Below the pieces are notes generated by a model. That model did no database searches. It was not told where the DNA came from and saw only the letters and a list, made by a program, of their open reading frames with translations. The translations under genes and the position numbers were made by a program. A DNA stretch of 64,000 nt from a virus. Position 1 is the first letter of the stretch, and every line of letters starts with the position of its first letter. Location of the stretch: positions 1 through 64,000 of the IMG/VR virus record IMGVR_UViG_3300037311_000299, one strand, 5' to 3'. Shown here piece after piece: positions 24,401-59,631 of this stretch.

Positions 24401-24412
24401 AGCGTGCCGCGA

Positions 24413-24426
24413 TTCGACGGATAGAC
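24413..24426 (+). repeat. Arm-type direct repeat TTCGACGGATAGAC (copy 3)
   Basis: 13 of 14 nt identical to copy 1, on the other side of the core. Confidence 0.5.
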
Positions 24427-24469
24427 GGCGGCGCCGGCCTTCTCGCTCGCACAAGACTTGGAGGAACGC

Positions 24470-29880: not shown

Positions 29881-30797
29881 TTGTCATGAAGGACTGCCCC
29901 CAGTGCGGGGCGAACAGGATTCGAGAAACCGTAAGCCATTGCGGCATGTGCGACGTCGCCGGTCGCCTCGAGGAAACCGTCTCCCGGCTCACCGACGAGA
30001 ACGCTCTGCTTCGCAATCTGCTCGATGAACTCGTGCGCCGCAAAGCGGCCCCGGTCTCCACCAACATACTATCGCCCGAGGAAGTCGAGGTATCTCGCGT
30101 CGAAGGGCGGTTGCACGTGACCTCCGATGGCTACGGATATGTAGTCGTCCCCAGCGCTGGCCCCGAAGACGAACGGGGGTTGAGACTCGCGCCTCAAATT
30201 TCGGTCTACGGCGGCGGATACTTCCACTTTCTGGCCCCAGACCCTAGCATGGTCGACATCCACTCGGTCGTGCACTCCCTCAGCCGCATCGCACGATTTA
30301 CGGGGCACCTGCGGGGCGGAACGTGGACCGTCGCGCAACACAGCCTTCTGGTGGCGTTCATCCTGCAGCTCGCCGCTGCGCCGCCGACGGAGCAATTTCG
30401 CGGGCTCTTGCACGACGGTGCCGAAGCGTTCCTTGGAGACGTCTCCGCGCCGCTCAAGCAACTCCTCCCCGATTATCGACGGGTCGAGAAGCGCGTCGAG
30501 CCCGTAGTGGCTCGCGCATTTGGGCTCGGCGCCCTCCATTCTCCGCTGGTCTCGCAGGCCGACGAGTGCGCCATGCACATCGAAGCCTCGCACCTGTCTG
30601 ACTGGCCCTGGACCAGCCGCGAGCGCGCTGACGAGCTCCTCCGGGCCCTCGTGCCAGGACTTGCCTCGTACCGCCGCCAGGCGGAGGAGTACTTCTGGAA
30701 GCTGCAGCGAAGCGAGCGCAGCAAAATCGAAGAGATGTTTCATGCGCAGTTTGGCAGACTCCGCGCAGAGGCTGCAGCGGAACGGGGGCTTCAATGA
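29877..30797 (+). CDS. HD-domain phosphohydrolase (YfbR-like) with an N-terminal zinc ribbon
   Basis: CPQCG...CGMC ribbon, then AQHSLLVA and LLHDGAEAFLGDVSAPLK (H...HD...D). Start is GTG at 29877 or ATG at 29886. Confidence 0.7.
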   Translation: MIVMKDCPQCGANRIRETVSHCGMCDVAGRLEETVSRLTDENALLRNLLDELVRRKAAPVSTNILSPEEVEVSRVEGRLHVTSDGYGYVVVPSAGPEDERGLRLAPQISVYGGGYFHFLAPDPSMVDIHSVVHSLSRIARFTGHLRGGTWTVAQHSLLVAFILQLAAAPPTEQFRGLLHDGAEAFLGDVSAPLKQLLPDYRRVEKRVEPVVARAFGLGALHSPLVSQADECAMHIEASHLSDWPWTSRERADELLRALVPGLASYRRQAEEYFWKLQRSERSKIEEMFHAQFGRLRAEAAAERGLQ

Positions 30798-41994: not shown

Positions 41995-42195
41995 ATGGCA
42001 ACAACAAGGGAACCCGGCTCAGAGAATGCGGTGGACACGGACCTATCGGCCGAGGTGAAGAACGGCAGGTTTTTGTTGGACGAGTCTGAGTTTCACGCTG
42101 AAACAAAGCGGAAGTTTGAGGAAGCCTACGCTGAAGCAATGGCTCGCGTGGCCGCAAATCAGGCCCGCTCCAACCCGAGTGACAAGTCGCCATAG
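41995..42195 (+). CDS. Small hypothetical protein
   Basis: 66 aa. Strong SD GGAGGAGG 7 nt upstream. Lower-GC region. Confidence 0.4.
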   Translation: MATTREPGSENAVDTDLSAEVKNGRFLLDESEFHAETKRKFEEAYAEAMARVAANQARSNPSDKSP

Positions 42196-42334
42196 GCCGG
42201 GACTCGTTTCGCTCCGTCCGCGCCGCCCAAGAGCTATCACGCCACGCTCGCAAGACCCAAGTGACTCCGTAGCGCCAACCCGCGACCTTTGCACCTTGGG
42301 GCGTTGGTCTTGACGTCACCTCTGGTCTGCGAGC

Positions 42335-43546
42335 ATGCTTGTCGAACGTGTGACACATAGCGGGAGGAGCGGTGTGGCTTTTGTTGATGACTTTCAGCGG
42401 CATGTAGACCAAGTGAAGATGCGTCTTCCCCATGTCCGGGGGGAAGAAAGCACCAAGCACGCCTTGGTTGTACCTCTCTTGCAGGTGCTTGGTTATGATG
42501 TGTTCGACCCTCGAGAAGTTCAACCCGAGTACGTCGCCGACTTCGCAAAGAAGAAGTCTTCGGGCCAGATGGAGAAGATCGACTACGTCGTCTTCCTCAA
42601 CTCCCAGCCTGCGCTGTTCATCGAGTGTAAGTCCACCGACGCCAAGCTCGAAGACCATGACGGGCAGCTTGCCAGGTACTTCAACGCTACCCCGGGAGTG
42701 AAGATCGCTATCCTGACGAACGGAGTTCAGTTCAAGGCGTTCTGCGACCTTCGTCAGCCAAACATGATGGACCCGACTCCATGGCTGGATGTTGACTTGC
42801 TCAACCTCAAGCCGGCCGAGTTCGATGCCTTGAAGCGCTTCCGCAAGGTCGACTTCTCTCCTGAGAGCTTGATCGCTCTGGCGGAGGAGATGGTCTACTA
42901 CAACGCTATGGTGAGCATGATCACGGGGCAGCTCCGTGACCCATCCGAGAGCTTCGTGCGTTTCGTTGCGAGTGAGCTCCCCGGGCTGCCCAGGGTCACT
43001 GCGAAGATCGTAGACAGGCTTCGCCCCATCCTTCAGAAGGCGATCCAGTCAGCCATCGTGGAGCACGTCGCGCGGTCCTTCGCACCCATCATGTCAGAGC
43101 CCCCTGAAGAGCCGAGGCCTGCGTCCGCAGTCCCTGCGCAGGCCGAGTCTGCGCCGCAGGGAGACGCTAGGGAAGGTGTGGTGACCACGGCGGAGGAGAT
43201 ACAGGCGTACCAGCTCATTCGTTCCTGGATTCTTGAAGTTCATCCTGGGGCCTCGGTAGCCTACAAGGACGGAAAGACCTACTTCACCATTAACATGGCC
43301 AACGTGCGCAAGTGGTTCGTCCGCCTGCAAATCCAGAAGGCACCCTATTGGGTCGCGTTGCGGCACCTGACACCCGACCAGTTGGGCCACATGGCCCCTG
43401 GCATGGATCATCTCGACCCGAGCGCATTTGGCGATTCCAGGGTGACACTTCGAAGGATAGAGGACCTCGCGCGGCTGCGCTCCGGCTTCTTGGAAGCCTA
43501 CTCGCGCGAGGCCGAGCGGCGCTCCGATTCGGATGACGCTCAATAG
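42335..43546 (+). CDS. HsdR_N-type (PD-(D/E)xK) restriction-endonuclease-like domain protein
   Basis: 403 aa. EESTKHALVVPLLQVLGY...KIDYVVF...ALFIECKS...QLARYF matches the type I R-subunit N-terminal nuclease-like domain. Uncharacterised C-terminal ~150 aa. Reduced GC. Confidence 0.65.
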   Translation: MLVERVTHSGRSGVAFVDDFQRHVDQVKMRLPHVRGEESTKHALVVPLLQVLGYDVFDPREVQPEYVADFAKKKSSGQMEKIDYVVFLNSQPALFIECKSTDAKLEDHDGQLARYFNATPGVKIAILTNGVQFKAFCDLRQPNMMDPTPWLDVDLLNLKPAEFDALKRFRKVDFSPESLIALAEEMVYYNAMVSMITGQLRDPSESFVRFVASELPGLPRVTAKIVDRLRPILQKAIQSAIVEHVARSFAPIMSEPPEEPRPASAVPAQAESAPQGDAREGVVTTAEEIQAYQLIRSWILEVHPGASVAYKDGKTYFTINMANVRKWFVRLQIQKAPYWVALRHLTPDQLGHMAPGMDHLDPSAFGDSRVTLRRIEDLARLRSGFLEAYSREAERRSDSDDAQ

Positions 43547-43705
43547 CCGACCTGGCGCAAGCCCTAGCCTAAGGTAGCGATGCAGATGCTAGACGGCGAC
43601 GGCAGTCCAGTGGGTGGCTCGCGTCGCAACTAGATTTCTTTCGGGGTACGTCGTGGACCTGGCGAGCGGGGATTTGATTGCCAGAGCCGTAACGAGGGAA
43701 AGAAC

Positions 43706-45346
43706 ATGAACGTGCTGGTTGTGCTGCTTGGGGTAGTAGTGCTCATCCTGCTCGTCGCCTACCTAAATGAGAGGCGGGTCGTTGTTGCGGCTCAGGATCG
43801 CTTGCGAAAGACTGAGGCTGATGCGCGAGAGAAGCTCACCGCTGCGGCATCCGAGATGACCTTTCTGAAATCTTGGGTTGACGAATTGTCCGTTTATCAG
43901 TCCATCATCGACGCGGAAAAGCGGACGCGTGAGATTCTGGATGAAGCCAACGGGCAAGCTACGGAGATACTCGCCACGGCTAGGCAGGACGCTGCGCAAG
44001 TAAAGCAGAAAGTCGAAGCTGTTCTATCGCACGCGCAAGCAGAGTTGGACAAGGTCTCGGGGATGGTTGCTGCGGAGCGGGCCCGTGCGCGAGATGAAGC
44101 AGAGAGAATCGTGAACCAGGCCCTAGAGGAGGCACGACGAGTTGCTGGTTCCGCCTTAGACGCCAAGGAGAATGCCGAGCGCTACACGAAGATCGCGCGG
44201 GCGATGCGAAACGTAATTGAAGGCTACGGCAGCCGATACGTAGTTCCAACGACTGGGCTGGTAGATGAGCTGGCAAATGAATACGGCCACAAGGATTTTG
44301 GCGCTCAGCTCAAGCTGGTTCGCCAGCGACAGAAGGATCTAATCAAGAGTGGCCGAGCCGCTGACTGCAAGTATGTTGAGGACAATCGGAGAACTGCTGC
44401 CGTTGAGTTTGCGCTCGATGCGTTCAACGGCAAAGTTGATAGTATTGTCTCCCGAGTGAAACATGACAATTTAGGAAAGCTCCGGCAAGCTATTCTTGAT
44501 GCGTTCGAATTGGTAAATCGCAACGGCTCGGCATTCAGGGATGTAAGGGTGACTCTTGAGTACCGAAATCTGCGATTGGAGGAGCTTCGCCTTGCTGTTG
44601 GCATTCAAGAGATGAAGTTACGCGAACAGGAGGAGCAGCGAGAGATCCGGGAGAAGATGCGAGAGGAGGAGCGAGCCAAGCGAGAGTTTGAGAAGGCCAT
44701 CAAGGCCGCCGCGAAGGAGGAGAAGGACCTCACGAGAGAGATGGATGCGATGCGCGCCAGGGTTGCCACAGCCACTGAGGCCCAGCGGGCCGAGTACGAG
44801 GCCAAGCTGGCCGTCCTCGAGGCTCGCCTCAAAGAGGCCGAGGAGCGAGAGCGGCGGGCCATCTCGATGGCTCAGCAGACCCGGCGCGGCCACGTCTACG
44901 TCATCTCGAACATCGGCAGCTTTGGCGAGAACGTCTACAAGATAGGCCTCACCCGCCGCCTGGACCCCATCGACCGCGTGAGGGAGCTAGGCGACGCGAG
45001 CGTTCCGTTCCCCTTCGACGTGCATGCGATGATCTTCAGCGAAGACGCCCCTGCGCTCGAGTTCGAGCTCCAAAAGCGCTTCCAGGAGAAGAGCCTCAAT
45101 CTCATCAACTTCCGCAAGGAGTTCTTCGCCGTGCCCATCGCGGAGATCAAAAAAATGCTCGATTCCATGGGGGTGCAAGCCCACTGGACCGAGGCGGCCG
45201 CCGCGCGGGAGTACAGGGAGTCGATCGCGATCCGCGAACGTGGAGAAGTAGCACAAGCGGTGGCTCGACGAGGGCCGATTGCGCCTAGCGAGGATGACGA
45301 GTTGGACTTGGATGCGGAGTTTCCTGAGCTGTTGGCTGCTGGCTAG
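43706..45346 (+). CDS. DUF4041 + T5orf172 (GIY-YIG-related) domain protein with an N-terminal TM helix
   Basis: 546 aa. MNVLVVLLGVVVLILLVAYL, long coiled coils, DUF4041-like middle, C-terminal GHVYVISNIGSFGENVYKIGLTRRLDPIDRV...FPFDVHAMIFS typical of T5orf172. Confidence 0.7.
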   Translation: MNVLVVLLGVVVLILLVAYLNERRVVVAAQDRLRKTEADAREKLTAAASEMTFLKSWVDELSVYQSIIDAEKRTREILDEANGQATEILATARQDAAQVKQKVEAVLSHAQAELDKVSGMVAAERARARDEAERIVNQALEEARRVAGSALDAKENAERYTKIARAMRNVIEGYGSRYVVPTTGLVDELANEYGHKDFGAQLKLVRQRQKDLIKSGRAADCKYVEDNRRTAAVEFALDAFNGKVDSIVSRVKHDNLGKLRQAILDAFELVNRNGSAFRDVRVTLEYRNLRLEELRLAVGIQEMKLREQEEQREIREKMREEERAKREFEKAIKAAAKEEKDLTREMDAMRARVATATEAQRAEYEAKLAVLEARLKEAEERERRAISMAQQTRRGHVYVISNIGSFGENVYKIGLTRRLDPIDRVRELGDASVPFPFDVHAMIFSEDAPALEFELQKRFQEKSLNLINFRKEFFAVPIAEIKKMLDSMGVQAHWTEAAAAREYRESIAIRERGEVAQAVARRGPIAPSEDDELDLDAEFPELLAAG

Positions 45347-45434
45347 TCTGGCCGAAGCCAATCACTGATTACCTAGCCAGAGAGGCTAGTGTTGGCGCCA
45401 GTGCCCTTACAAGTAACTGGAACGGAGGTTGTGA

Positions 45435-45935
45435 GTGAAGGATCAATCTATGAAGTACCTTAGTGCTCTGGCTCAATTTACCGACGAAGTCGATCTCGAC
45501 ACGCTTGACCCCGTCGAGGAATCGGACCGAGACAAGCGAAATCAACGTCACCAGGTGTTAGAGTACATGCGCCAGAAGGGGTGGATAAACTATGAATCCA
45601 TGCTCGGTGGCGGGGGATATGTGAGCATCCGCGCCGAAGGAATTGATACGTTGAATGCGCCGCCCAGCCAAGCCACAACTCAGTCGGTAACCTACAACGT
45701 CCATGGGGTGCATGGACCGGCTCAGTTTGGCAACAACAATGTGCAGAACATTACCTATCGGCAGACGCTGGAGCGGTTGTGCGATGAGATAGAAAAGAGC
45801 GACATGGATGAGGGGGAAAAGACGGAGGCTAAGTCGTACGTTCAGGCCGTTCTGCACAATCCACTCTTAAACACCGTTCTTGGCTCGGCGCTCAGCTTCG
45901 GTGGCGCGGTACTCCAGAAATTAGTGCAAGGCTAG
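45435..45935 (+). CDS. Hypothetical protein (winged-helix-like N-terminus, hydrophobic C-terminal helix)
   Basis: 166 aa. RHQVLEYMRQKGWINY...YVSIRAEGIDTL. C-terminal LLNTVLGSALSFGGAVLQKLV. About 50% GC. Confidence 0.5.
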   Translation: MKDQSMKYLSALAQFTDEVDLDTLDPVEESDRDKRNQRHQVLEYMRQKGWINYESMLGGGGYVSIRAEGIDTLNAPPSQATTQSVTYNVHGVHGPAQFGNNNVQNITYRQTLERLCDEIEKSDMDEGEKTEAKSYVQAVLHNPLLNTVLGSALSFGGAVLQKLVQG

Positions 45936-45988
45936 GTCGGCCATCGTTTGGGTTCGGTGCCGTCCGAGCTCTCCGAGCACGGCCGACC
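45935..45988 (+). terminator. Nested GC stem-loop at the stop codon (GGTCGGCC...GGCCGACC)
   Basis: 8-bp outer stem with an inner GCCGT/ACGGC stem. No U-tract. Lies between convergent cassettes. Confidence 0.35.
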
Positions 45989-46318
45989 GGCACATTCATC
46001 GAACGCCGCATGATACAGCCGCCGCTTGCGCTCGCTGCCGTGCCAGCTCGTCCGTAGACGCGACACACTGTCCACCACCGCCTGGAACGACCGCGCCAGC
46101 CTTCCGAGGAAATGAGGCAGGAACCAACATGCCTGCGCTGGTTGGCCCGACGCGAACAACTGTCCCACCGGCTCTCGTTGTCTTCCCAACCATCAATCCG
46201 GGTCACTGGTTGACAAGCGCAGACCGGCCCGAAGCGATGGGTGGTTAGGCGCAGGATAGGCGCGGCCCGTAGGCGGACCACACTCAATTCAGGCTCCATG
46301 GTTGACGGTGGCCACAAG

Positions 46319-46798
46319 TCACGCGAACCGAATCGGCTTGGAGAATGATCTCACGAAGACTTGGCTGCACTTAGCGGGTTCGATTGGTACCGGCTCTGAC
46401 TTCCGAAGTGCAGAGTAAACTCCGCCTCTATTCAGCGAACTAAATTTAACCTCGTTGCCTGCGCTGTCGAGGCATTTGGCTCCGGATTTGCCCATGGCCT
46501 GGACGTATTCACGCCACTGCTTGTAGCTCAGGAGTGAGCCCGCACGGAGATGTTCTTGTACGCTTGGACTTACACGGAGCATGACAAACCTCGCTGCATC
46601 AAGAGGCACGGCAGTGTGCCAAGTTGGCCACATGGAGGGTATGCCGGTTGAGGTGACTGTCAAGCCGCGGTACCGATCAGACATCAGGTCAGCCCTACGA
46701 GGAGTGCAGCACTTGTAGGGAGATGGGCAAGTCCATGTACCGTCAAACAAATGATACATTTTCCTTGGGTCGCCAAGCCAGCCGCCAGTCCTTGTCAT
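46319..46798 (-). CDS. Hypothetical protein, third gene of the DprA-like/PRTase cassette
   Basis: 159 aa (alternative start at 46759). Overlaps the PRTase gene end by 17-56 nt. No recognisable motif. Cys/Trp-rich N-terminus. Confidence 0.5.
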   Translation of the reverse strand: MTRTGGWLGDPRKMYHLFDGTWTCPSPYKCCTPRRADLMSDRYRGLTVTSTGIPSMWPTWHTAVPLDAARFVMLRVSPSVQEHLRAGSLLSYKQWREYVQAMGKSGAKCLDSAGNEVKFSSLNRGGVYSALRKSEPVPIEPAKCSQVFVRSFSKPIRFA

Positions 46799-47438
46799 CG
46801 AACCAGATTATTTCACTACGGGCAGCCGCGGTTGCTCCCGAGGAATAGTCGGCTGCCACCGTGTGCGTGGCGGTAAGCAGGCGGACATCGCCCTCGTAGC
46901 CGGCCTGCTGGAGGGCTAACAGACACCCCATAGCGGCGGTGCCGTAGGTCAGAACATCGTCTAGAAGGGTTATCGGCAGATCCGGGTTGAGCAATGTTGC
47001 ATCGACGGCGAGCGAATCGCGATGTTCCAGGACAGACGTTCGGTCATTGCGCCCGGCAGCGTGAGACTTAGCAACTGCGGTCCTTCGGGTCAGCAAGGGG
47101 TGAGCGCTTCTCGCGAGCCCCGCCGCCTGAAGACGGACGGCGAGGTCGTACATTGGCCAAGTTTTCCGTTTGGGCGGAAGTGGTGTCACGCTTGATGACG
47201 GAACGGGCACTATTTGACGCCCAGGCCCGATGACATCAGCGAGTTCGTCTGCACTGTCCTTTAGTACGCTGCTGAACCACTCAATAGCCATCACTGTGTT
47301 TCCATCCCCGTCAGTCAGACCGCCGCCTTCCTTGAGAGCGTACAGCAGCTTTTGGAGCCACTTTTCCTCTTGAGTGGCGGCATTGGACTTCGTGTAGTAC
47401 GGAAACACCGAGAACGCTTGGATGGAAAAGCGGCTCAC
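46743..47438 (-). CDS. Phosphoribosyltransferase-like (ComF/PRTase-fold) protein
   Basis: 231 aa. PRPP-binding loop ITLLDDVLTYGTAAMG. GTG at 47438 overlaps the DprA-like stop (GTGA). Confidence 0.7.
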   Translation of the reverse strand: MSRFSIQAFSVFPYYTKSNAATQEEKWLQKLLYALKEGGGLTDGDGNTVMAIEWFSSVLKDSADELADVIGPGRQIVPVPSSSVTPLPPKRKTWPMYDLAVRLQAAGLARSAHPLLTRRTAVAKSHAAGRNDRTSVLEHRDSLAVDATLLNPDLPITLLDDVLTYGTAAMGCLLALQQAGYEGDVRLLTATHTVAADYSSGATAAARSEIIWFDDKDWRLAWRPKENVSFV

Positions 47439-48166
47439 CGGATGGCCTCCAGCACTTCGTCCGTGTTGTCCAAAATCCTCGCCCCGTTCTTCACAAAGCT
47501 CTCTGGCCACTTCAGGTCTCTGTTATCTAGCAAGCTTCTCATCAAGAACAGTGGCCGACCCAAGCTCAAGACTTCTCTCGCTTGTGAGAGCGAGCCGCTG
47601 CCGTCGCCAGCTTCAACAATGACGGAGGCATGAGCGATCCGAGCCATTACGCGGTTGCGTGCTACGAAGTTTGACGGAAACACTCGCGAGCCCGGGGTGA
47701 ACTGGCTAATGAGCAAGTGATGGCGGTAAATCTCCGCTTGAAGCTCGGCATGTGCCGCCGGGTATGCTGTGTCGAGCGGCGTGCCAATCACTGCAATGGT
47801 TCGGCCGCCGGCCTGGAGTGTGGCGGCGTGGGCAGCGAAGTCGATGCCCTTGGCCAGTCCGCTAACAGTTGCGACTCCGGCTTGGGCGAGTTGGCGCGCT
47901 AGTTTTGCGGACCTGCGGACGCCGTCCGCCGACGCGGACCGCGAGCCCACGATTGCAACCAGTGCCGGTGCTCGCAACAGCGTGGTATCGCCCGCGCAGT
48001 AGAGAATTGGAGGCAGCCTCATGAGCTCTGCTGGGAGCACATCCTCAAACGCATCCTCGGCTGACAGAATGCGAACATCTGCTGGTGGCGTGTAGCGGCT
48101 CCTAGACACCATCTCTCGTGGTCTCCACGCATCGCTCGTGTTGGCGGCATCCGCTGCGAGAGCCAT
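47435..48166 (-). CDS. DprA/Smf-like (SLOG-superfamily Rossmann) protein
   Basis: 243 aa. VAIVGSRSAS...SGLAKGIDFAAHAATL...TIAVIGTPLDTAYPAAH...FPSNFVARNRVMA...VIVEAG matches the DprA core. No SAM or C-terminal wHTH extensions. ORF 47435..48367 trimmed to the ATG at 48166. Confidence 0.75.
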   Translation of the reverse strand: MALAADAANTSDAWRPREMVSRSRYTPPADVRILSAEDAFEDVLPAELMRLPPILYCAGDTTLLRAPALVAIVGSRSASADGVRRSAKLARQLAQAGVATVSGLAKGIDFAAHAATLQAGGRTIAVIGTPLDTAYPAAHAELQAEIYRHHLLISQFTPGSRVFPSNFVARNRVMARIAHASVIVEAGDGSGSLSQAREVLSLGRPLFLMRSLLDNRDLKWPESFVKNGARILDNTDEVLEAIR

Positions 48167-48270
48167 AGTCCCACCCCCTGGTGCTAGACGGCGCGTTGTG
48201 CGTGCACCGAGGGTGGATGATATCCAGTTTGGGTCTTGGTACAACCGACGGGGTTCGATGAGGAGCCAGG

Positions 48271-50496
48271 TCAGATCTGAACGACCCGATACCGCGCTAG
48301 CACCTGCGACACGTAGAACGTCGCCGGCCCCGCCGAGGCGAACGTGCCCACGAGCCGTAGAGCCCACCTATCGGCAGTGGCGCCCGCGACCTCGCTCGCG
48401 AGCGTCACGAGCTTCGAGGTTGGCGCGCTGTCGGTGGGGTGCACCCACGTCACCGAACTCGACAAGGACTCCGCAGTCCAGCCGCTCGAGGCGTTGTCGC
48501 AGTCGGTTCGCTGTATGGTGGCCGACATGGCGTCTCCGGCGTCGGTGCCGGTGAGCCACCCGATGACGCGGAAGCCCACCAGGGCCTCGCCCACGCGGTG
48601 CTGCGGGGCCTGGAAGTAGAGCGGCGCGTTGGCGGTCGTGCAGCTCCAGCGGTGCCCGTTGAAGGTCCACCCGCTGCCGGCGGCGTTGCTGTGGTCCATG
48701 TGGACCGTGCGCTCGACGAGCTTGCCGCCGGCGCCGATGAGGTGCAGGTCGGGCACGAGCACCCGAGGCTTGACCGAGAGCGACGTGTCTTCCTGGTTGC
48801 CGTCAGCCTTGGTGAAGCGCAGGTAGTTCGCCGCGGTCGGGTTGGCCGCTGTGCCGAGCGAGAGCTGTCCGGCCTCGGCCCGCCAGAGCCAGTCGTTGGC
48901 GCCCCCGAGCGCGAAGTCCACCACCTCCGAGCCGGCGAGGTCGGTGCTACCGGCGCCGTCGTCCTCGCCGTCGGGGCCATAGAGCCACAGCTCCCGGTGG
49001 GTGCCGGCGATGCGGCGCAGGCGCAGCATGACGGGCTCGACGCCCTGGTCGACGCGGTCCGCGCCGTGGAACAGTGAGACCCGCATGACCGCCCGGCTGC
49101 TCAGCTCGTCCACGGCGAGGCTCGCCGCGGGGGCCGCCGCACCTGCCGATAGCAGGATGTCTGCGCGAGACTCAGGGTGAGGCCTGCGGGTCCGCGCGAG
49201 GTCGGCGAGGGTCTCGGAGACCACCGCGTTCGTGCCGGTGTTCCACTCGAATCGCGCCACCTCGAGGCAGTCGCTGTACGTCGAGTTGTACGTGGCCTCC
49301 GCTGCGATGGTGAGCTGACCCACCATCGCCTCGACGGCTGCGGAGGCGTTGGAGTCCACGGCCAGGACGAAGAGCACGTAGTCGCCAGAAGCCTCGTTGT
49401 GGCTGAAGGCGACCGTGTCGGCCGCGAGGCCTCGCACGACGCGCATGCGTCCCTCGGCGTCGGCCGTGTAGATGAAGCTCCCGGCGGGTAGCGGGTCGAG
49501 CTCGAAGGTTTCGGTGGCTGGGCCCGTGGCGCTGTGCGCGAGGCTCTGCGACCACGCCTCGGTCTCGGCGAGCCCGGGGATGTAGATGGCCGGGCCTGCC
49601 AGGCCCCACTTCAGCACGTTCGAAGCCTCGGTCTCGAGGAACGCCAGGTCGCGCGCCAGCGAGCCGAAGGTCTTGATCGTATTCTGGGCAGCCGTCGAGA
49701 CCGTCCCGTCGAGCACGGTGCCGAGGTACCAGTAGCTGAGATTTCCCTCCGAGTCGGTCTGGGTGGAGAGGTTCGTCGTGGACACCGACAGCCCCTCGAG
49801 GAGAACGAGGTAGGCCGCGGTGCTCGTCGACGGCGTCTCCTGGCCGAAGCTGTGGGCGACGGCCACCGTGACGTTCGTGCCGTTGCTCTTGGCTTGGCCC
49901 TCGACGATGGCCAAGCCTGCGTCGACCGGGTTGACCATCCACACGTGCGCGCGCCGGTACTCGGAGCTGCTGTTGGCCCAGGCGCCCCCGCTGGCTGCGG
50001 TGGCGAGCGTGTTGACGTTGAAGGTCATCGTCCCGTCGCCGTTGGCGGTGACGGTGTCCGGGGCGCCGAGCTCGCCCATCGTGAGCTTGTAGCGCGACAG
50101 GTGTAGCAGGCCGCTGGAACTCGCGACGAAGGTCGGCCGAGCCTGGTAGCGAAAGCCCAGGTGGTAGGTGGTGCCGCTCTGCCGCTTGTAGGGCACCTGG
50201 GTGATGCGCCCCAACACGTCGGAGTCGGCGGTGTTGTAGGACAGAATCCGCCCGGCGGCGGTGCCGCTCGCGGCCGAGGGCGAGGCCACCGCCAGCCGAT
50301 ACACTCCCGAGGAGAGGCTCTCGGTGATGGACACGGGGTCGTCCCCGAAGGTGCCCGGCGTGGGGTACTCGGTGACCACCTTCGCGCGCTGGACGTTTTC
50401 CAGATACTCGAGCACGCGCACCCGCAGGTCGTCCGACCCGACAATCAAGCGGTTGGTGGGGTTGAGTCGGGTCTGGCCAGTTTGGGTGGTCCCCAT
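48271..50496 (-). CDS. Tail fibre / receptor-binding protein (putative)
   Basis: 741 aa, Ser/Thr/Gly/Ala-rich. Last gene of the baseplate block, downstream of the gpI-like gene. Confidence 0.55.
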   Translation of the reverse strand: MGTTQTGQTRLNPTNRLIVGSDDLRVRVLEYLENVQRAKVVTEYPTPGTFGDDPVSITESLSSGVYRLAVASPSAASGTAAGRILSYNTADSDVLGRITQVPYKRQSGTTYHLGFRYQARPTFVASSSGLLHLSRYKLTMGELGAPDTVTANGDGTMTFNVNTLATAASGGAWANSSSEYRRAHVWMVNPVDAGLAIVEGQAKSNGTNVTVAVAHSFGQETPSTSTAAYLVLLEGLSVSTTNLSTQTDSEGNLSYWYLGTVLDGTVSTAAQNTIKTFGSLARDLAFLETEASNVLKWGLAGPAIYIPGLAETEAWSQSLAHSATGPATETFELDPLPAGSFIYTADAEGRMRVVRGLAADTVAFSHNEASGDYVLFVLAVDSNASAAVEAMVGQLTIAAEATYNSTYSDCLEVARFEWNTGTNAVVSETLADLARTRRPHPESRADILLSAGAAAPAASLAVDELSSRAVMRVSLFHGADRVDQGVEPVMLRLRRIAGTHRELWLYGPDGEDDGAGSTDLAGSEVVDFALGGANDWLWRAEAGQLSLGTAANPTAANYLRFTKADGNQEDTSLSVKPRVLVPDLHLIGAGGKLVERTVHMDHSNAAGSGWTFNGHRWSCTTANAPLYFQAPQHRVGEALVGFRVIGWLTGTDAGDAMSATIQRTDCDNASSGWTAESLSSSVTWVHPTDSAPTSKLVTLASEVAGATADRWALRLVGTFASAGPATFYVSQVLARYRVVQI

Positions 50497-50497: not shown

Positions 50498-51697
50498 TCA
50501 GGCTCCTGGGCCGACGCGGTGGGCCGCGACGGGGTGAATGGCTACTTCGGTGTAGAGCAGGTCCAGAGCGGCACCGCTGTCGACGTACAGCGAGCAGGTA
50601 CCCGCGCGGGCGTGGTCGGTGGCCGAGGCGGTCTCGACGATGAGGTTTCCGTCCACCGTCACCCGCACGGAGTCGGTGGAGACGCCCGCGATGGACGCGA
50701 TTTGCAGGTGGTGTTGCACCTCGAGGTGCAGCTCGGTGGCGGTGGTGCTCAGCAGCGTGAGCGTGCCGCCGGTCTCGTCGTAGATGCGTATTCGACCGGC
50801 GGTCGAATCCGTAGCGTGAAACGTCACTCGAACGACGGTGGAGTTGTCGTCGGCCGAGGAGTGCCGGATGCGCCACCACGAGTCTCCCGCCGCGGAGGCC
50901 TCCAGCAGGGAGGTCCACACCACCCGCTTCCACGCCGCAGAGCAGGGCCCCACGGACATCGCCATGCCTGTCTCGTTGGCGAAGGCCAGCCGGAACACCG
51001 CCGTCTCGAGGGTGGCCGGCGTGACGCCCGGCATCCTGGACCACTGAAAGAGCCCCTGGGAGAAGTCCTCGACGAGCGCGTACCAGTAGACGTCCAGCCG
51101 CTCGTTCCAGGGCCGCAGCGCGGCGATGGCGCCGTGCACGAGGTCGCGGTTGGCGCGCTTCTCGCCGGCGGAGAGTGTACCGCCGAGGTCCTCGAAGATG
51201 CCGTAGGGGTCCGGAAGATGGAGGTCCACCGTGTACTCGCTCCAGGGCGAGGCCCCGGGAGACGAGAGCCCGTACCAGGGCAGGCTCGTGAGCCCCAAGA
51301 TGTCCTTGCGCAGATGCCAGTCGGCCACCAGCACCGGCCGCGCGAGCAGGGCCACCAGTATCGACCGGAGGTCGAATCCCGCCTGCCGCCAGATGGCGAC
51401 GGCGTCGGGCAGGAAGCGCCGCCACTGGGCTTCGGTGAAGTGCCTTGGGAAGCCGATTGCGGCGTCGAGCCCGAACTGCGCGCCGAGCAGCGGGAGACAC
51501 TTGCCCGGGACCCGGTCCGGGTCGTGGACGTCGCGCATGGCCAGCGCCCGGTTGTACAGCGGCAGCGACGTCTTCGCGGCTGCCTGCAGGAGACCCCGCA
51601 AGATACGCGCCTGCTCCGCGTCGTGCAGGTGGCCCGGGTGCAGCCAGCCGAGCATCTGGGCGGCGCTGTCGTCTACCCACTCGTCGGTGGCGCTCAC
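50498..51697 (-). CDS. Baseplate/tail protein, P2 gpI-like N-terminal domain
   Basis: 399 aa. DPDRVPGKCLPLLGAQFGLD resembles the gpI family signature. Follows the gpJ-like gene with a 4-nt overlap. Confidence 0.55.
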   Translation of the reverse strand: MSATDEWVDDSAAQMLGWLHPGHLHDAEQARILRGLLQAAAKTSLPLYNRALAMRDVHDPDRVPGKCLPLLGAQFGLDAAIGFPRHFTEAQWRRFLPDAVAIWRQAGFDLRSILVALLARPVLVADWHLRKDILGLTSLPWYGLSSPGASPWSEYTVDLHLPDPYGIFEDLGGTLSAGEKRANRDLVHGAIAALRPWNERLDVYWYALVEDFSQGLFQWSRMPGVTPATLETAVFRLAFANETGMAMSVGPCSAAWKRVVWTSLLEASAAGDSWWRIRHSSADDNSTVVRVTFHATDSTAGRIRIYDETGGTLTLLSTTATELHLEVQHHLQIASIAGVSTDSVRVTVDGNLIVETASATDHARAGTCSLYVDSGAALDLLYTEVAIHPVAAHRVGPGA

Positions 51698-53931
51698 GAG
51701 GCCTCCGTGATGGTGACGGTCGCAGTGCCGAGCATCGGCAGCTCGCCCTCGTCGAGGTCGATGGCGGCCACGTCCGTGAGGCTCTCGCCGAGGTCGTCGA
51801 TGGTGGTGACCTGGTCGATGTAGCCGTCACCGGCTGCTGCGGCGATGGCCGCGAGCACGGTCGTCTTCGAGAGCCGCCCCCCGAGCCGGTGGACGTAGGT
51901 GCCGGTGGCCTCGGTGGAGTCGGTGGGCAGGCGCCGGCGGACGAGCGGGCGCAGCGCATCGGCGAGCGCGGCTTCGATGGCGGCCTTCACGCCCCCCGCG
52001 TAGCCGGTGAGCACCGTGACCGTTGTCGTGACGTTGACCACCCGCGCGACCCAGTTCAGCACCCGCGCTTGCTGGTTGAGCAGCATGCGCTTTCCGATGC
52101 GCTGCCAGCCATAGGCGGTGCCGTTGAGCCACGCCTCGAGCTCCTCCAGATCGTCGGCGGTCAGCTGGGTGTCGCCGGTACCCACGACGTAGACGCGGGC
52201 GGTCTTGGGGTCGGTCTCGTCCTCGTAGCCGATGGCGCGGGCCACGGGCGAGCGCCCGTCGGCGGTGCGAAAGTTTGCCTCGATGAAGGCGCCCGTCGCC
52301 TCCGCGGTGACGGGGCCGTTGACCGCCCGCACGTAGCCGGGGATGAGCAGCTTCGTCTTCGCGATGGAGGCCTCCGTGCCCCCTTCGCGCGCGGCCCAGC
52401 CGGTGGCTGCGCGGGGATTGGTGATGTCCGCGAGCGACGTGACGGCCGTCGAGGCGGTCTTCACCGCGCCGGCACCGACGTTGCCGTCGTCCATGGCACC
52501 CCGGCGGTAGGACGCGAGAATGCGGGCACCCGCCGGGGGGATGGCGCCCGTGACGCCGTCTCCGAAGGTGTAGCGGAACGTCCCGTCCGGGTCCTCGCTG
52601 AGCTGCACGACCTTGTCGTCGGGGTCGTAGCCGTACAGGCTCGCCACCACCGTCCACACCTCGCCGCCCACCGTGACGGAGTCTGCCTCCGCGGCGGTGC
52701 CGTCGATGATGTCTGCCGCCGAGAGCTGGTAGGTCTGCAATGCCGCGGTGGTGGCTTGGCCGAGGTCTTCGGTGACGCTGCGCCCCTGCTGGCAGTCCTC
52801 GAGGAGCAGGTGCCAGCGCCGGGCCACGCCCGCCACCGTGCCCAGCGCGGGGCTGCTCGCGGGGTTGCCGATGGCGCGGCAGCGCACCCAGAAGGCCGTC
52901 ACGCTGTCGAGCTCGGTCTTGGCCCAGGCGTAGTCGGCGGACTGCGGCAGCGTCCACTGCACGCTGCCGGACTGCTTGCAGCCGTTGGTGCCGTCGACCA
53001 GGCCCGGCAACGCCACCCATCGGGGCCTCACCTCGTACAGGGCGGGGTTCTCGCTCGGGGAGGTCTGGCCCAGGTAGCTCACGTCCACGTAGTGGCCCGC
53101 GCCGAAGGCCAACACCGCCTCCTCGCGCGCGCCGGTGGGCAGGTAGACCACCTCGATGGTGAACAGCCCGTCGGCCACACTGCTCGCGCCGAAGAAGCTG
53201 TTGATGGCCACCCGCAGGGTGCCCGAGCCGAGGTCGGTGACGGTCGAGGGCGCGAGCGCATAGTCCGGATCGTAGTACTCCCACCGGGCTGCTGCGGCGG
53301 CGTGGGTGAGTGTGCCCGTGAAGGTCAGCGCAAGCGCGCTGAACATCGCGTCGGGGTGGCCCAGATACAGCGCGTCGCCGGAGTCGTGGTTGGCCCAGAT
53401 GGTGGAGCCGCTCACCGCGGCGAAGGCCTCCGTGGCGGCGATGAACCGCCGGGCCACCCCCCGGTCGGTGCCGTCGCCGGCGAAGTCGGTGGGGCGCACG
53501 CTCACCGCGTCCCCCAACCACTCGAACTCCACCGCCGTGGCCCCGGTGTCGGGGGTGGTGGTGAAGCGCGTGCCCGAGGGGACGAGCGACTCGGTGGACG
53601 ACAGAATGCGGGTGATTGTCGCGACCACGTCCGTGCTGGCCGGCGTCTCGCGGCGGAGCTGGTAGCCCACGAGCCGAGCGAGCGCCACGAGCGCCGCGCG
53701 TGTGCGCAGGGTCGGCAGGTAGGACTCTGCCGCCTGGTCGTCGATGAGGGTGTGCCCGATGTGCTGGTACAGCGCGAACACCCGCCCGAGGCCGTTGACC
53801 AGGTCGAAGGGGTCCGTCTCGGTGTGGTCGGGCAGGAACTCCCGCTTCCAGCGCCCGAAGGCATCGACGAGGCTGTCGTAGTAGATGCCGTTGACCTGCA
53901 GGTCGCGCGGTGTCGTGACCGGGATCGCCAT
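51694..53931 (-). CDS. Baseplate J-like protein
   Basis: 745 aa from MAIPVTTPRDLQVNG. Call based on position between the gpW-like and gpI-like genes. ORF 51694..54342 trimmed (TGATG overlap). Confidence 0.65.
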   Translation of the reverse strand: MAIPVTTPRDLQVNGIYYDSLVDAFGRWKREFLPDHTETDPFDLVNGLGRVFALYQHIGHTLIDDQAAESYLPTLRTRAALVALARLVGYQLRRETPASTDVVATITRILSSTESLVPSGTRFTTTPDTGATAVEFEWLGDAVSVRPTDFAGDGTDRGVARRFIAATEAFAAVSGSTIWANHDSGDALYLGHPDAMFSALALTFTGTLTHAAAAARWEYYDPDYALAPSTVTDLGSGTLRVAINSFFGASSVADGLFTIEVVYLPTGAREEAVLAFGAGHYVDVSYLGQTSPSENPALYEVRPRWVALPGLVDGTNGCKQSGSVQWTLPQSADYAWAKTELDSVTAFWVRCRAIGNPASSPALGTVAGVARRWHLLLEDCQQGRSVTEDLGQATTAALQTYQLSAADIIDGTAAEADSVTVGGEVWTVVASLYGYDPDDKVVQLSEDPDGTFRYTFGDGVTGAIPPAGARILASYRRGAMDDGNVGAGAVKTASTAVTSLADITNPRAATGWAAREGGTEASIAKTKLLIPGYVRAVNGPVTAEATGAFIEANFRTADGRSPVARAIGYEDETDPKTARVYVVGTGDTQLTADDLEELEAWLNGTAYGWQRIGKRMLLNQQARVLNWVARVVNVTTTVTVLTGYAGGVKAAIEAALADALRPLVRRRLPTDSTEATGTYVHRLGGRLSKTTVLAAIAAAAGDGYIDQVTTIDDLGESLTDVAAIDLDEGELPMLGTATVTITEAS

Positions 53932-54311
53932 CACACTTCTCCCGTGATTTGGGCCTCTTGGCCGCCGGTCTCGAGGTTCTGCCACCGAATGACGACTGCC
54001 CGCCGGCCGTCGTCGCGCACGGGCCCCGACTCCATCGCGACGAGCCGCGCACGGCGCTGCGCCTCGAGGTCGCGGAAGACGCTGCGCACGTGCTCGTCGA
54101 ACCGCGCCGACTGCCGCCGGCTGGCCGTCTCGTACTCGCCGCCGGGCACCGTGTAGCCCTCGGCCACGTCGAAGGGGTGCAGGCTCATGCCCGGCGAGAG
54201 CCGCGCGACGATGACCTGCTCGAGGCTTCGGCGGCCCCCGTCGTCGGGGGAGGTCCACGCGATGCCGCCGGTCGGCGCAATACGCAGGGGTGTGAGCGCG
54301 CTGCGAGCCAT
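53931..54311 (-). CDS. Baseplate wedge protein, gpW/gp25-like
   Basis: 126 aa. Size and position between the gpV-like and gpJ-like genes. TGATG overlaps on both sides. Confidence 0.5.
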   Translation of the reverse strand: MARSALTPLRIAPTGGIAWTSPDDGGRRSLEQVIVARLSPGMSLHPFDVAEGYTVPGGEYETASRRQSARFDEHVRSVFRDLEAQRRARLVAMESGPVRDDGRRAVVIRWQNLETGGQEAQITGEV

Positions 54312-54886
54312 CAGGTGCCCTCGTCTTTGGCGACGTACACACGAGCGCTCAGCACGTCGCCGAGGGCCGTACGGACGCCCTGGATGCCGGAAATTGCCGT
54401 CTGCACCACCGCCTGAGACGCGGGGTCCATTGAGGCTGTGCCGTAGGTCGCGTTTCGGATGGAGCCGAGCGCTGTCTCGATGTTCTGCAGCGCCGTGGTG
54501 AGCTTGGAGACGAGCGCGTCTCCGAGCACGGCCCGCTCGGTCGCGCCGAAATGGCCGAGGTAGACCTTGCCGACGGAGTCGAGCCCCACGAGCGAGGCCT
54601 CGTCGCGCGAGACCAGCGCACGGCGCTGCGGGTATTCGTCCCGCGCCCACCCCGGCGGCTCGGCCGAGGGCGAGGGCGCGAGCTCCGTCCACACGTAGTC
54701 GCCCGGCGCAGAGCTCTCGACCGCGACGGTGGTGTCGACCGTGGGGATGGCCCAGGGCGTGGCGACGGCGAAGCGCGGGCGCGCCCAGAAGGGCTGCTCG
54801 AGCAAGGCGGGGCACTGAACCAGCACGCGCCCCTGCTGCTTGGGGTCGGTGTCGTCGACGACGACCGCGAGGTAGACCCGGCTCAT
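54311..54886 (-). CDS. Baseplate spike/assembly protein gpV-like
   Basis: 191 aa. AVVVDDTDPKQQGRVLVQCPAL...WARP...PTVDTTVAVE fits the gpV/gp5 OB-fold N-terminus. Confidence 0.6.
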   Translation of the reverse strand: MSRVYLAVVVDDTDPKQQGRVLVQCPALLEQPFWARPRFAVATPWAIPTVDTTVAVESSAPGDYVWTELAPSPSAEPPGWARDEYPQRRALVSRDEASLVGLDSVGKVYLGHFGATERAVLGDALVSKLTTALQNIETALGSIRNATYGTASMDPASQAVVQTAISGIQGVRTALGDVLSARVYVAKDEGT

Positions 54887-57330: not shown

Positions 57331-59631
57331 TCAGCCCTCCGGGTTCAGCAGGTGCGGGCGGTGGTAGTTCTCGGCCAGCGGCTCGATGACCCCCGCGCCC
57401 TCCCCCGTCCGCAGCACAACCGCCCGGTAGCGGGCGTTCAGGTGGCGCGCCGTGCCGTCGCCGCGGGAGGCCCGGGCCGCGATCGAGTGGCCGCGCTTGC
57501 GGTCCTTGTCCGTGATCTGGTGGAAGATTTTGATGCCGATGTCGGAGAAGCCACTCCTGATGGAATCGCTGGCCGATGTCATGGCCTTGACCGCTGTGCC
57601 GATCGGGCCAACTGCGAGGAGACGGGTGATCACCTCCTCGGTCACCGCGTCGACCTTTGCCTGAATCGCTATTAGTTCCTTCACGGCCTTCTCTCGAGCT
57701 CTTTTCTCCTGGTTGATCAGCTCGGTGAGTTGCTCTTCCACCGCTGTACGGTTACCGAGCACCGTCTTCATCGCTTCTTTGCTGGCTTCGTCTATGAAGG
57801 CGTCGACCATAGTGGGGTCGAGCATCCGCGGCCCAAGACCCGGCATGGACGGCGCTTCTGCGCGCTGCTGAAACTGTTTCGATGTCTCGGCGGCCAGTTC
57901 TCCGAAGAGCTTGCTCTGCAGCTTTTTTAGCGCGGCCTGCACGAGTTTGTCCTGCGGATCATATCCAGCCTGCCGGAGGAGGTTTTCGTTGCCATAGCCG
58001 GTCGAGACCACGTCCATGATGCCCGGTACGTTTTTCAGGAATCCTCTTGGATTAGCCCTGAAAAACTCCGCATACCCCTTGATTTCGCGGCCCTCGGTAT
58101 TGCCAAACACCATCGTTTTGACGTTTTTCGCCGTGTCCATGTCAAGCTGGGCTCTGAGAGATTCATTGTCCCCAAAATACTTTCTTCCGAAGTATCCTCC
58201 TAGGGCCTCGCCGAGTGCCGCTGCCGCTGCCGCTGCCAACACCATCGACTCCACCACCAAAGTGCCCGTCGCGATTTTCCCCAGCACTCCGGCCGCGCCA
58301 GTAGCAGCTCCGGCAGCAGCACCAGCGCCGGTTGCTGTTTTTGCCTGCGACAGCGCCCCGCCTACGCCTGCAGCGAATTTTCCGATAAGGCCGAGCCCCT
58401 TTCCCACGAGCATGACCTCAAGCATTTCAAGCAAGCCTTTCACGACGTCTTCTGCGATGGTGAGAAATTGTCCGACAGCCTTCTTCACTTTGGGTATGGC
58501 CGCTTCGATTTTCGCTGGCAGCTTCTCGATGCTGCCTCCGTACCTATTCAAGATCATCACGCCGACGTCTCGAGTCATGGTGCTGAAGGAGGTCTTGATC
58601 CTGTCGATGTGATGGCCGGTGGACTGCCCAACTTGCTCGAACTGTCTATCCATCGTCCCGGTGGCACGGCGCATCGACGCGAGGTTACGCTCGAAGTCCG
58701 CGGCTTTCTTTCCAGTGATCGACAGCACCAAATTGAAGGCCTCGACAGACCCGAAAAGCGTTGCCAGAGCCTCTTGGTCGTCACCTGCGGCCTCGCTGAC
58801 CTCGCGCATGAACCCGGCGAGTCCTTCGGCCTTCAATCCGGTGGTCGAGAAATCGACACCGAGCCGCTCCGCGACCTTTCTGGCCTCTCCAGACGGCTTG
58901 ATCACTGCTGCCAGAGACTGCCGCAGGGCGGTGACCGCCTCAGCGGTCTTGATGCCAGCGGAGGTCGAGGTGGCCATTACTGCCGCGACCTCCTCGATGC
59001 TCACTCCTGTGGCGGCCGAGGTGCTGACGATGTTGCCGAGGCTTCGGGACAGCTCCTCGATCGAGGTCTTGCCGATGTTCGCAGACGCAAAGAGGACGTC
59101 CAAGACCTGCTCGGTTTTGCCCGCCGAAATTCCATAGGCATTTAGCACGCTCGTGGCGCCGTCCACGACGGTGGTCATGTCGGTGAAGCCGCCCTTGGCG
59201 GCCTTGGCCATGGCCCGGGTGAATTCGACCGCGCTTTCCTGTGCGATGCCAGCGCTCATGGCCTGGTACATCGCCTCATTGATGTCGTTGACCCCAATTC
59301 CGAAGTCCAGCGACATCTGCCGGACGGCCCCGCCGAACTTCTCGATGGCTCCGGAGCGGGAGCCCATAAGCGTGCCGATCTTGGTGAGCCCACGGTCGAG
59401 CTCGACTGCGCCGCTGATGGTCTGGTTGAGGCCCACGGTTGCGCCCGCGAAGGCGAGCCCGTAGCCCACCAGCGCCGAAGTGGCGCTTTTCAAGGTTCTC
59501 TCGGCGCGGTCGATGCTCAGCCCCATGGCGCCGACCAGGGTGCCAAAGCGCTGTGTTTGCTTCCCGGAGGCCCCCAGAGCAGCCCGAAACATCGCGTCAT
59601 CGAGCGTAAGCTTTGCGCCGAGTGTCAGCAT
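57331..59631 (-). CDS. Tail tape measure protein
   Basis: 766 aa. TP901-type core (GIGVNDINEAMYQAMSAGI...TSVLNAYG...LFASANIGKTSIEELS), Ala/Gly-rich hydrophobic segments. Follows the chaperone genes. Confidence 0.9.
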   Translation of the reverse strand: MLTLGAKLTLDDAMFRAALGASGKQTQRFGTLVGAMGLSIDRAERTLKSATSALVGYGLAFAGATVGLNQTISGAVELDRGLTKIGTLMGSRSGAIEKFGGAVRQMSLDFGIGVNDINEAMYQAMSAGIAQESAVEFTRAMAKAAKGGFTDMTTVVDGATSVLNAYGISAGKTEQVLDVLFASANIGKTSIEELSRSLGNIVSTSAATGVSIEEVAAVMATSTSAGIKTAEAVTALRQSLAAVIKPSGEARKVAERLGVDFSTTGLKAEGLAGFMREVSEAAGDDQEALATLFGSVEAFNLVLSITGKKAADFERNLASMRRATGTMDRQFEQVGQSTGHHIDRIKTSFSTMTRDVGVMILNRYGGSIEKLPAKIEAAIPKVKKAVGQFLTIAEDVVKGLLEMLEVMLVGKGLGLIGKFAAGVGGALSQAKTATGAGAAAGAATGAAGVLGKIATGTLVVESMVLAAAAAAALGEALGGYFGRKYFGDNESLRAQLDMDTAKNVKTMVFGNTEGREIKGYAEFFRANPRGFLKNVPGIMDVVSTGYGNENLLRQAGYDPQDKLVQAALKKLQSKLFGELAAETSKQFQQRAEAPSMPGLGPRMLDPTMVDAFIDEASKEAMKTVLGNRTAVEEQLTELINQEKRAREKAVKELIAIQAKVDAVTEEVITRLLAVGPIGTAVKAMTSASDSIRSGFSDIGIKIFHQITDKDRKRGHSIAARASRGDGTARHLNARYRAVVLRTGEGAGVIEPLAENYHRPHLLNPEG

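Follow-up and report, generated by a model that had tools for sequence, protein, structure and literature searches.

A probable mosaic defence island in an integrated phage

The DNA analysed here is a stretch of 64,000 nucleotides (the window), positions 1 to 64,000 of IMG/VR virus record IMGVR_UViG_3300037311_000299, and the subject of this study is a cargo island of low guanine-plus-cytosine (GC) content at about 42.0-48.3 kb. We consider it probable, at roughly 0.8, that the island is a mosaic of defence and accessory genes at the tail-module end of an integrated tailed phage. It appears to stack at least two known defence systems, SNIPE (formerly PD-lambda-1) and ShosTA, together with one candidate, a solitary nuclease of the HsdR_N type. 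With equally high confidence, the four plus-strand genes of the island are regarded as independently acquired, independently acting cargo and not as one system. A previous sequence-only reading had described these four genes as a candidate uncharacterised defence module. The defence-related part of this proposal held, given the SNIPE homologue and the ShosTA pair next door, while the single new module did not.

The list of open reading frames (ORFs) confirmed the four plus-strand genes of this cassette. They are p66 (66 amino acids, aa; 41995-42195), the HsdR_N ORF as listed (403 aa; 42335-43546), the SNIPE / PD-lambda-1 homologue (546 aa; 43706-45346) and p166 (166 aa; 45435-45935). The GC drop noticed earlier is real as well, since 1-kb windows gave GC values of 0.565-0.599 across 42001-48000 against 0.68-0.705 on either side. 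In 300-bp windows the values were 0.51-0.667 at 42000-48299 and climbed to 0.70 from 48300. Overall, GC is about 58% in the island and about 70% in its flanks. The compositional island thus measures about 6.3 kb, extends 2.4 kb past the end of the four-gene cassette and is larger than first noted.

The island (42000-48300, no strand) lies between the plus-strand genes of the prophage and its minus-strand tail module, whose genes start at 48271. Phage structural genes on the minus strand include a baseplate-wedge homologue (51694-54342) and a tape-measure protein (57331-59631). These matches at 51.7-59.6 kb agree with the earlier view of the cassette as accessory cargo at the end of a prophage tail module. 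A Phage_base_V-like protein was also called on a Logan contig of identical sequence. Neither flanking direct or inverted repeats nor a tRNA gene were found at the island borders. When the whole island was compared with 50,697 phage records by megablast, no match came up; hence, the resident phage is not in that collection.

The 546-aa protein as a SNIPE homologue

PD-lambda-1 was originally found in the screen of Vassallo et al. and has been renamed SNIPE in work on Escherichia coli (Saxton et al., Nature 2026; PMC13190303). Judged by its sequence, the 546-aa protein is a full-length homologue of it. The PADLOC PD-Lambda-1 model PDLC03976 matched with an E-value of 6.4e-117, aligning aa 46-516 of the protein with profile positions 35-479 of 491. 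A second PADLOC PD-Lambda-1 model (E 2.4e-113) and phrog_1847 (E 7e-125) matched as well. Both domains proposed earlier were recovered in Pfam: DUF4041 at aa 235-290 (44408-44575, plus strand; PF13250, E 1.1e-12, 48 bits where the cut-off is 27), and a T5orf172 / GIY-YIG nuclease domain at aa 395-487 (44888-45166, plus strand; T5orf172 E 2.3e-13, MUG113 E 1.3e-13). PF13250 (DUF4041) is called 'SNIPE' in a newer Pfam release.

The N-terminal transmembrane helix of the sequence-only reading was also predicted here, at aa 2-21 (43709-43768, plus strand), with a Kyte-Doolittle 19-residue mean of 3.0. This call is a hydropathy calculation and not the output of a dedicated topology predictor; the value is comparable to the 3.4 obtained at aa 6-24 of the reference PD-lambda-1. 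About two thirds of SNIPE homologues have a transmembrane helix in their first ~70 residues (PMC13190303). The features that define SNIPE at the sequence level, namely a near full-length profile match, the transmembrane helix, DUF4041 and a GIY-YIG domain with its catalytic glutamate, are all present in the 546-aa protein. The sequence-only reading had recognised no named system in this region; as the first PADLOC match makes clear, a protein with a transmembrane helix, DUF4041 and T5orf172 is on its own PD-lambda-1 / SNIPE.

The annotated PD-lambda-1 of phage PhiR26_1 (500 aa) served as the reference. By BLASTP, 388 aa aligned at 41% identity, and the nuclease core is nearly the same in both proteins. 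The SNIPE paper names nine residues (L253, E264, K305, E223, T319, W257, I308, N250 and E414), all of which are in place in the PhiR26_1 protein; its numbering is therefore the SNIPE numbering. E452 of the 546-aa protein aligns with the catalytic E414. The first ~135 residues could not be aligned to the reference, which is expected because a hypervariable N-terminal region, probably an adaptor, has been reported for SNIPE (PMC13190303). According to the same paper, SNIPE homologues have N-terminal regions that mimic membrane-associated proteins, including type III secretion components. As a separate observation, aa 68-181 of the present protein (43907-44248) gave an HrpE/YscL/FliH / V-ATPase-E-type coiled-coil match (E 1.3e-5).

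In E. coli, SNIPE cleaves phage DNA during injection, and its gene on a plasmid gives defence alone (PMC13190303). The DUF4041 domain of the E. coli protein binds both DNA and the tape measure protein of the phage, with which SNIPE associates; in the case of lambda it also associates with ManYZ. Defence is abolished by E414A or by deletion of DUF4041, and SNIPE without its transmembrane helix turns toxic. The protein is active against siphoviruses and not against the myoviruses or podoviruses of the BASEL collection, and the induction of a resident prophage is unaffected (all PMC13190303). By analogy, the N-terminal helix of the 546-aa homologue would tether it to the inner membrane, at a distance from the chromosome. 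When a siphovirus superinfects, its tape measure protein and incoming DNA would be engaged by the DUF4041 domain, and the GIY-YIG domain would cut the DNA while it is being injected. The resident prophage would escape, its DNA being already intracellular.

A ShosTA pair in the same island

Two adjacent, overlapping and co-oriented genes on the minus strand match the components of ShosTA. One encodes a ShosA / DprA-like protein, the antitoxin component (47435-48367; PADLOC ShosA E 1.1e-64, Pfam DNA_processg_A E 6.7e-54). The other encodes a ShosT-like protein, the toxin component (46743-47510; PADLOC ShosT E 1.6e-14), whose match is partial, covering profile positions 65-199 of 237 without Pfam support. 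A gene caller run on the identical Logan contig placed ShosT at 46743-47438 (231 aa). By the sequence matches and gene order, the pair is identified as a ShosTA defence system, a further known system in the island. ShosTA is a DprA-PRTase toxin-antitoxin defence with a published mechanism (PMC11961720, PMC12961424). At the other end of the pair, the longest ShosA ORF overlaps the 3' end of a 741-aa tail-region gene by about 97 nt, and the true ShosA start is uncertain.

A solitary HsdR_N-type nuclease

The second cassette gene encodes an HsdR_N-type PD-(D/E)xK nuclease of the phrog_4225 family. Pfam gave HSDR_N at E 1.9e-11 and HSDR_N_2 at E 8.4e-8, which substantiates the HsdR_N domain proposed earlier. 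The phrog_4225 family, annotated 'endonuclease', matched the 403-aa protein end to end (E 7.5e-94). Codon 14 of the listed ORF is a GTG at 42374 with a Shine-Dalgarno (SD) sequence, GGGAGGAG, just upstream, and homologues begin MAFxDD exactly there. Because of this SD sequence and these homologues, the gene most likely starts at GTG 42374 and runs from 42374 to 43546 on the plus strand, giving a protein of 390 aa. Two other starts are less likely: the ATG at 42335, chosen by the ORF finder, and a downstream ATG, which the gene caller took on the Logan contig and which gives 375 aa. Residues are numbered below on the 403-aa ORF starting at 42335.

A search of 5.8 billion proteins returned 749 homologues at E <= 0.001 among 8000 candidates scored, and the 120 matches listed had lengths of 362-468 aa and shared 48-62% identity along most of the protein. 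D83, E97, K99, Q111 and Y115 were invariant in an alignment of 32 homologues. We take D83/E97/K99 and Q111/Y115 to be the PD...ExK and QxxxY motifs of HsdR/RecB-type nucleases. The active site thus looks intact at the sequence level, and the protein is probably an active nuclease. The family occurs in temperate phages of Firmicutes, Actinobacteria, Bacteroidetes and Proteobacteria, and the closest relatives of this member are from Myxococcota. No functional study of phrog_4225, or of the family of the 403-aa protein, was found in the literature searched.

The protein is laid out as a nuclease domain (aa ~35-145), a helical domain (~150-250), a proline-rich disordered linker (~256-280) and a C-terminal domain (~280-395). 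An AlphaFold (AF2) model of the 403-aa protein, with a predicted local distance difference test score (pLDDT) of 83, likewise showed a nuclease, a helical domain, a disordered linker and a compact C-terminal alpha/beta domain. Foldseek related the N-terminal domain to the nucleases of HsdR (3h1t, 2w00), DrdV and BpuSI. Searches with the whole protein mixed both domains and gave poor template-modelling (TM) scores; the C-terminal domain was therefore re-modelled alone, reaching a pLDDT of 87 and a predicted TM score of 0.83. Its top seven PDB matches form one fold group: the T4 MotA C-terminal DNA-binding domain, E. coli YjbR, PSPTO_3016 and DR2400/DUF419. TM scores were 0.40-0.57 and probabilities 0.54-0.95, with weak E-values (0.06-0.2). 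In BFVD, a DUF5655 protein matched the same domain at probability 1.0. We therefore regard this alpha/beta domain of ~115 aa, with moderate confidence in the modelled fold, as a probable double-wing DNA-binding domain.

A profile search with the HsdR_N family against PDB sequences gave nothing at E <= 1, and Pfam at E <= 5 gave nothing for the isolated middle and C-terminal domains. Pfam, which reported HSDR_N and HSDR_N_2 only, found no superfamily 2 (SF2) helicase/translocase or methyltransferase domain in the 403-aa protein. Pfam, PADLOC, NCBIfam and PHROG found neither hsdM nor hsdS in the island. In PADLOC 2.0, the protein matched no defence system model except for weak matches to the nuclease N-termini of restriction-modification (R-M) systems. 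The name 'predicted type IV restriction endonuclease' borne by some family members is a source annotation only. As a possible role, the protein would be a lysogeny-expressed DNA endonuclease whose C-terminal double-wing domain finds the target, and it could attack foreign DNA much as a type IV-like restriction enzyme without a methyltransferase would.

The cassette genes do not travel together

Two sets of loci were compared, 80 genomic loci with HsdR_N-family proteins (up to 10 kb on each side) and 80 viral contigs with SNIPE homologues (6 kb on each side). Their six-frame translations were searched with profile hidden Markov models (HMMs) for the HsdR_N and p166 families and with phmmer for SNIPE, ShosT, ShosA, p66 and p159, the last being a small minus-strand ORF of the island. 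SNIPE, p166, p66, ShosT and ShosA were found in 0/80 of the HsdR_N loci, and SNIPE, p166 and p66 were absent from seven further HsdR_N loci as well. Conversely, 0/80 of the viral SNIPE loci held an HsdR_N-family or p166-family gene. An earlier tblastn search agreed with these results. In an annotated phage collection, 19 records contain an HsdR_N homologue and 44 a PD-lambda-1 homologue, with 0 shared records. Co-occurrence of the cassette genes was seen only in the window and in the 13-kb Logan contig of identical sequence. The sequence-only reading had tied its sensor-effector system to co-occurrence of the genes outside this phage, and such co-occurrence was found in none of the 80 HsdR_N and none of the 80 SNIPE loci. 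The lack of a recurring cassette partner in the SNIPE loci is consistent with a SNIPE homologue that acts as a single gene.

Clustering of the HsdR_N neighbours gave conserved partners solely within cyanobacterial (mostly Nostoc) loci, which looks like synteny that related genomes have in common. Contigs encoding 57-58%-identical HsdR_N proteins (one prophage in two assemblies and one metagenome contig) shared no other gene with the window at tblastx scores above 50 bits. On one of them, HsdR_N again adjoins baseplate genes amid different cargo (patatin, M78 peptidases). Hence, the HsdR_N gene moves as a single-gene cassette.

A further arrangement was noted in an unrelated prophage on a Logan contig of SRR28678186 (L084, 8001-10782). 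There, a 58%-identical HsdR_N gene overlaps the next ORF (348 aa) by 4 nt, and a 183-aa ORF comes third. No Pfam family is on record for either ORF, and a patatin-like protein, two M78 peptidases and baseplate genes lie nearby. This is another cargo hotspot, in which the 348-aa ORF may be a lineage-specific operon partner of the nuclease.

Genomic position of the HsdR_N and SNIPE-like families

The HsdR_N gene was located in the lysogeny module of four temperate phages from different phyla, where it is co-oriented with, and immediately or closely downstream of, repressor or helix-turn-helix (HTH) regulator genes. These are Clostridium phage CWou-2020a, Klebsiella phage KpF5, Streptococcus phage Javan316 (regulator, small gene, HsdR_N, integrase) and Corynebacterium phage Juicebox (repressor gp34, HsdR_N gp33, further genes, integrase). 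Streptococcus phage Javan523 and Corynebacterium phage Poushou carry a DUF4041/T5orf172 (SNIPE-like) gene in a module of this kind. The Javan523 gene occupies the very slot that HsdR_N takes in Javan316, between the small gene that follows the regulator and the integrase. The two families thus look like alternative cargo at a lysogeny-expressed position, and this shared position argues that they are functionally analogous and not partners.

We also sampled 96 immediate HsdR_N neighbours from 55 dereplicated genomes. Matches at E < 1e-50 were obtained to PDC-S37, Hhe, PDC-S01, SoFic and IetA, with one neighbour per family, and weaker matches to WYL, Mko, DrmC and others. The commonest Pfam families among the neighbours are housekeeping ones, ribosomal protein S4 and tyrosyl-tRNA synthetase (TyrRS). 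The link of the HsdR_N family to defence is thus suggestive, not strong. The C5 methyltransferase at 24.8 kb, the sole methyltransferase found in the window, was considered as a partner of the nuclease and rejected: 16 kb separate the two, and in the sample of 96 nearest neighbours no family of methyltransferases recurs.

Small proteins of the island

The small proteins p66, p166 and p159 are orphan morons, and nothing indicates a part for them in the action of SNIPE, HsdR_N or ShosTA. The strong SD sequence reported for p66 was found again, GGAGGAGG lying 7 nt before its ATG. This protein had no Pfam match, even at E <= 5, and no PADLOC, NCBIfam or PHROG match; its sole match among 5.8 billion proteins was itself, and it was not found in any of the 160 comparison loci. 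NCBIfam gave nothing useful for the four cassette proteins. p159 (159 aa; 46319-46798, minus strand) lies downstream of ShosT, with a 56-nt overlap in the longest reading; it had no family match in any library, Pfam at E <= 5 included, and no homologue in the 170 loci examined, a search that did not extend to the large protein databases.

The p166 protein would have 161 aa if begun at ATG 45450. A word-indexed protein search returned p166 alone, and exhaustive phmmer against 1.8 billion representatives gave 107 distant relatives, mostly of 160-190 aa. PHROG matches were weak (16834 at E 1e-8), and Pfam at E <= 5 gave no family, just sub-threshold noise. Two structural features had been described for p166 before. 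The winged-helix-like N-terminus has no profile support; the N-terminal part of the family is variable, and a pattern L..GLI...G......T..GI in distant homologues suggests that it is compatible with a winged helix. The hydrophobic C-terminal helix scores 1.14, short of the usual Kyte-Doolittle threshold of 1.6 for a transmembrane segment. The conserved parts of the family are a G..N.QIGNNN.QNI motif and a C-terminal helix, EK.EAKS..L..EHPL.

With tblastn, p166 matched one phage only. In this Cronobacter phage, ENT39118, the p166-family gene stands alone and oppositely oriented between the Q antiterminator and the lysis genes. The interval between these genes is a classic moron site. The family was absent from all SNIPE and HsdR_N comparison loci, and nothing ties it to SNIPE. 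Within p166, aa 91-106 (45705-45752) contain GPAQFGNNNVQNI, which resembles the G-phi-Q-phi-G core of RHIM/PP/BASS3 amyloid-signalling motifs (defined in 10.1101/2020.01.06.895854). p166 as one half of a BASS/RHIM-like amyloid-signalling pair was rejected: the motif is internal, not terminal, and a six-frame regular-expression search found no second copy in the window.

Weighing the explanations

It is very improbable that the HsdR_N protein, the membrane DUF4041/T5orf172 protein and the 166-aa protein form one new sensor-effector module. The layout would suit such a module, as the genes share a strand and a low GC content, the gaps among the four genes are only 88-178 bp and no terminator is predicted between them, although promoter and terminator counts were at or below the shuffled expectation throughout. 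But co-occurrence was 0 in 160 comparison loci and 0 in phage records, a SNIPE gene alone suffices for defence (PMC13190303), the HsdR_N gene moves alone between unrelated prophages, and a p166-family member is a solo moron in another phage. Hardly more probable is a partnership on a smaller scale, with the 66-aa ORF and the 403-aa nuclease as a two-gene unit (inhibitor or antitoxin), or with the 166-aa protein as an accessory to this variant of SNIPE. Each small ORF is an immediate same-strand neighbour of a nuclease gene, and a strong SD sequence precedes the 66-aa ORF, but neither small protein has a homologue beside any HsdR_N or SNIPE homologue examined, and the 66-aa protein has no homologue at all.

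The nature of the 403-aa protein is a separate matter. It is unlikely, though clearly less so than the partnerships above, that this protein serves no defence and is a DNA-metabolism nuclease for repair or recombination, or a selfish free-standing endonuclease of the homing type. Synteny kept in 24 cyanobacterial (mostly Nostoc) loci, frequent S4 and TyrRS neighbours, transfer as a single gene between unrelated prophages, and PADLOC matches confined to weak R-M nuclease N-termini all speak for such a role. The position of the gene points the other way, for it sits in the lysogeny module of four temperate phages and not with replication or recombination genes, and here it shares an island with two known defence systems. 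The neighbour matches at E < 1e-50 to five defence families also count against a non-defence role. That the HsdR_N (phrog_4225) family is a genuine anti-phage nuclease has, in our estimate, a chance at or somewhat short of even. The fuller proposal, an unrecognised and widespread single-gene, prophage-borne anti-phage nuclease in which a MotA/YjbR-type domain reads foreign, possibly modified DNA, is put forward tentatively.

Some points weigh against the mosaic reading or its parts. The short same-strand gaps without predicted terminators mean that the cassette genes may be co-transcribed and may have some functional coupling. The work behind the SNIPE mechanism was done in E. coli, with lambda and ManYZ; the host here appears to be a bacterium of high GC content, and the N-terminal region lacks conservation. 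The defence role of HsdR_N is argued from position and neighbours, and many chromosomal copies lie beside TyrRS or ribosomal protein S4 or in cyanobacterial synteny; housekeeping neighbours and conserved synteny make the pattern less typical of defence genes. The fold matches of its C-terminal domain are weak (Foldseek E 0.06-0.2, TM scores 0.5-0.57).

With the mosaic reading, the annotation of the region is corrected from a supposed new three-protein immunity system to an island of SNIPE, ShosTA and a solitary nuclease. A SNIPE homologue is placed in the prophage of a high-GC bacterium, which fits the reported breadth of SNIPE, and the 546-aa protein supplies a divergent N-terminal adaptor region for study. 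The residual interest lies in the HsdR_N/double-wing family as a possible single-gene defence. Since it occurs beside repressors, in a SNIPE-like slot and module, it is a cheap and well-motivated candidate for phage challenge.

Other features of the window

Upstream of the island, the gene of a tyrosine integrase (22962-24224; Phage_integrase E 1.7e-10) precedes that of a C-5 cytosine DNA methyltransferase (24778-26436; E 1e-20). This stretch (22962-26436) is probably the integration end of the prophage, with an orphan or anti-restriction methylase. In the early region of the prophage, a 356-aa protein (29727-30797) carries a YfbR-like 5'-deoxynucleotidase domain at E 6.2e-6, barely past the cut-off, and could serve to modify the nucleotide pool.

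A calcineurin-like phosphoesterase (397 aa; Metallophos E 2.4e-13) and a 967-aa ORF without a Pfam match follow each other at 15561-19670, in a layout that recalls SbcD/SbcC or a defence pair of nuclease and ATPase. Another patch of low GC (0.59), at 2001-4000, carries the gene of a 697-aa protein (2534-4627, minus strand) with DUF927 (E 3.6e-35) and a Cch-type HTH_56 domain. Primase/helicase-like replication proteins encoded by integrative elements or satellites typically show this combination. The patch is possibly a separate mobile element upstream of the prophage.

Comparison with known systems

Like HsdR (EcoR124I, PDB 2w00), DrdV and BpuSI, the 403-aa protein has an N-terminal PD-(D/E)xK nuclease with D...ExK and QxxxY motifs. 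Unlike HsdR and the type IIG/IIL enzymes, it lacks an SF2 motor and any methyltransferase or specificity domain or partner, and it bears instead a helical domain and a MotA-CTD/YjbR-like C-terminal domain. With type IV restriction enzymes it shares the state of a solitary nuclease without a cognate methyltransferase, whereas its C-terminal domain resembles MotA-CTD/YjbR and not a known reader of modified bases. Within the phrog_4225 family it is a new member, full-length, solitary and of ~400 aa, with nothing material that sets it apart.

The minus-strand genes resemble ShosTA in being an adjacent, overlapping pair that matches the ShosA and ShosT models, and they sit outside the coordinates of the four-gene cassette (41995-45935).

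Compared with E. coli SNIPE, the 546-aa protein is longer (546 against 500 aa) and diverges in its N-terminal ~135 residues. Its host appears to be a high-GC bacterium, so its membrane partner, if any, is unlikely to be ManYZ. The order of parts is the same in both proteins, from the transmembrane helix through a coiled-coil region, DUF4041 and a linker helix to the GIY-YIG/T5orf172 nuclease. The catalytic glutamate is kept, the nuclease domain is highly similar and the gene, like those of many homologues, is borne by a phage.

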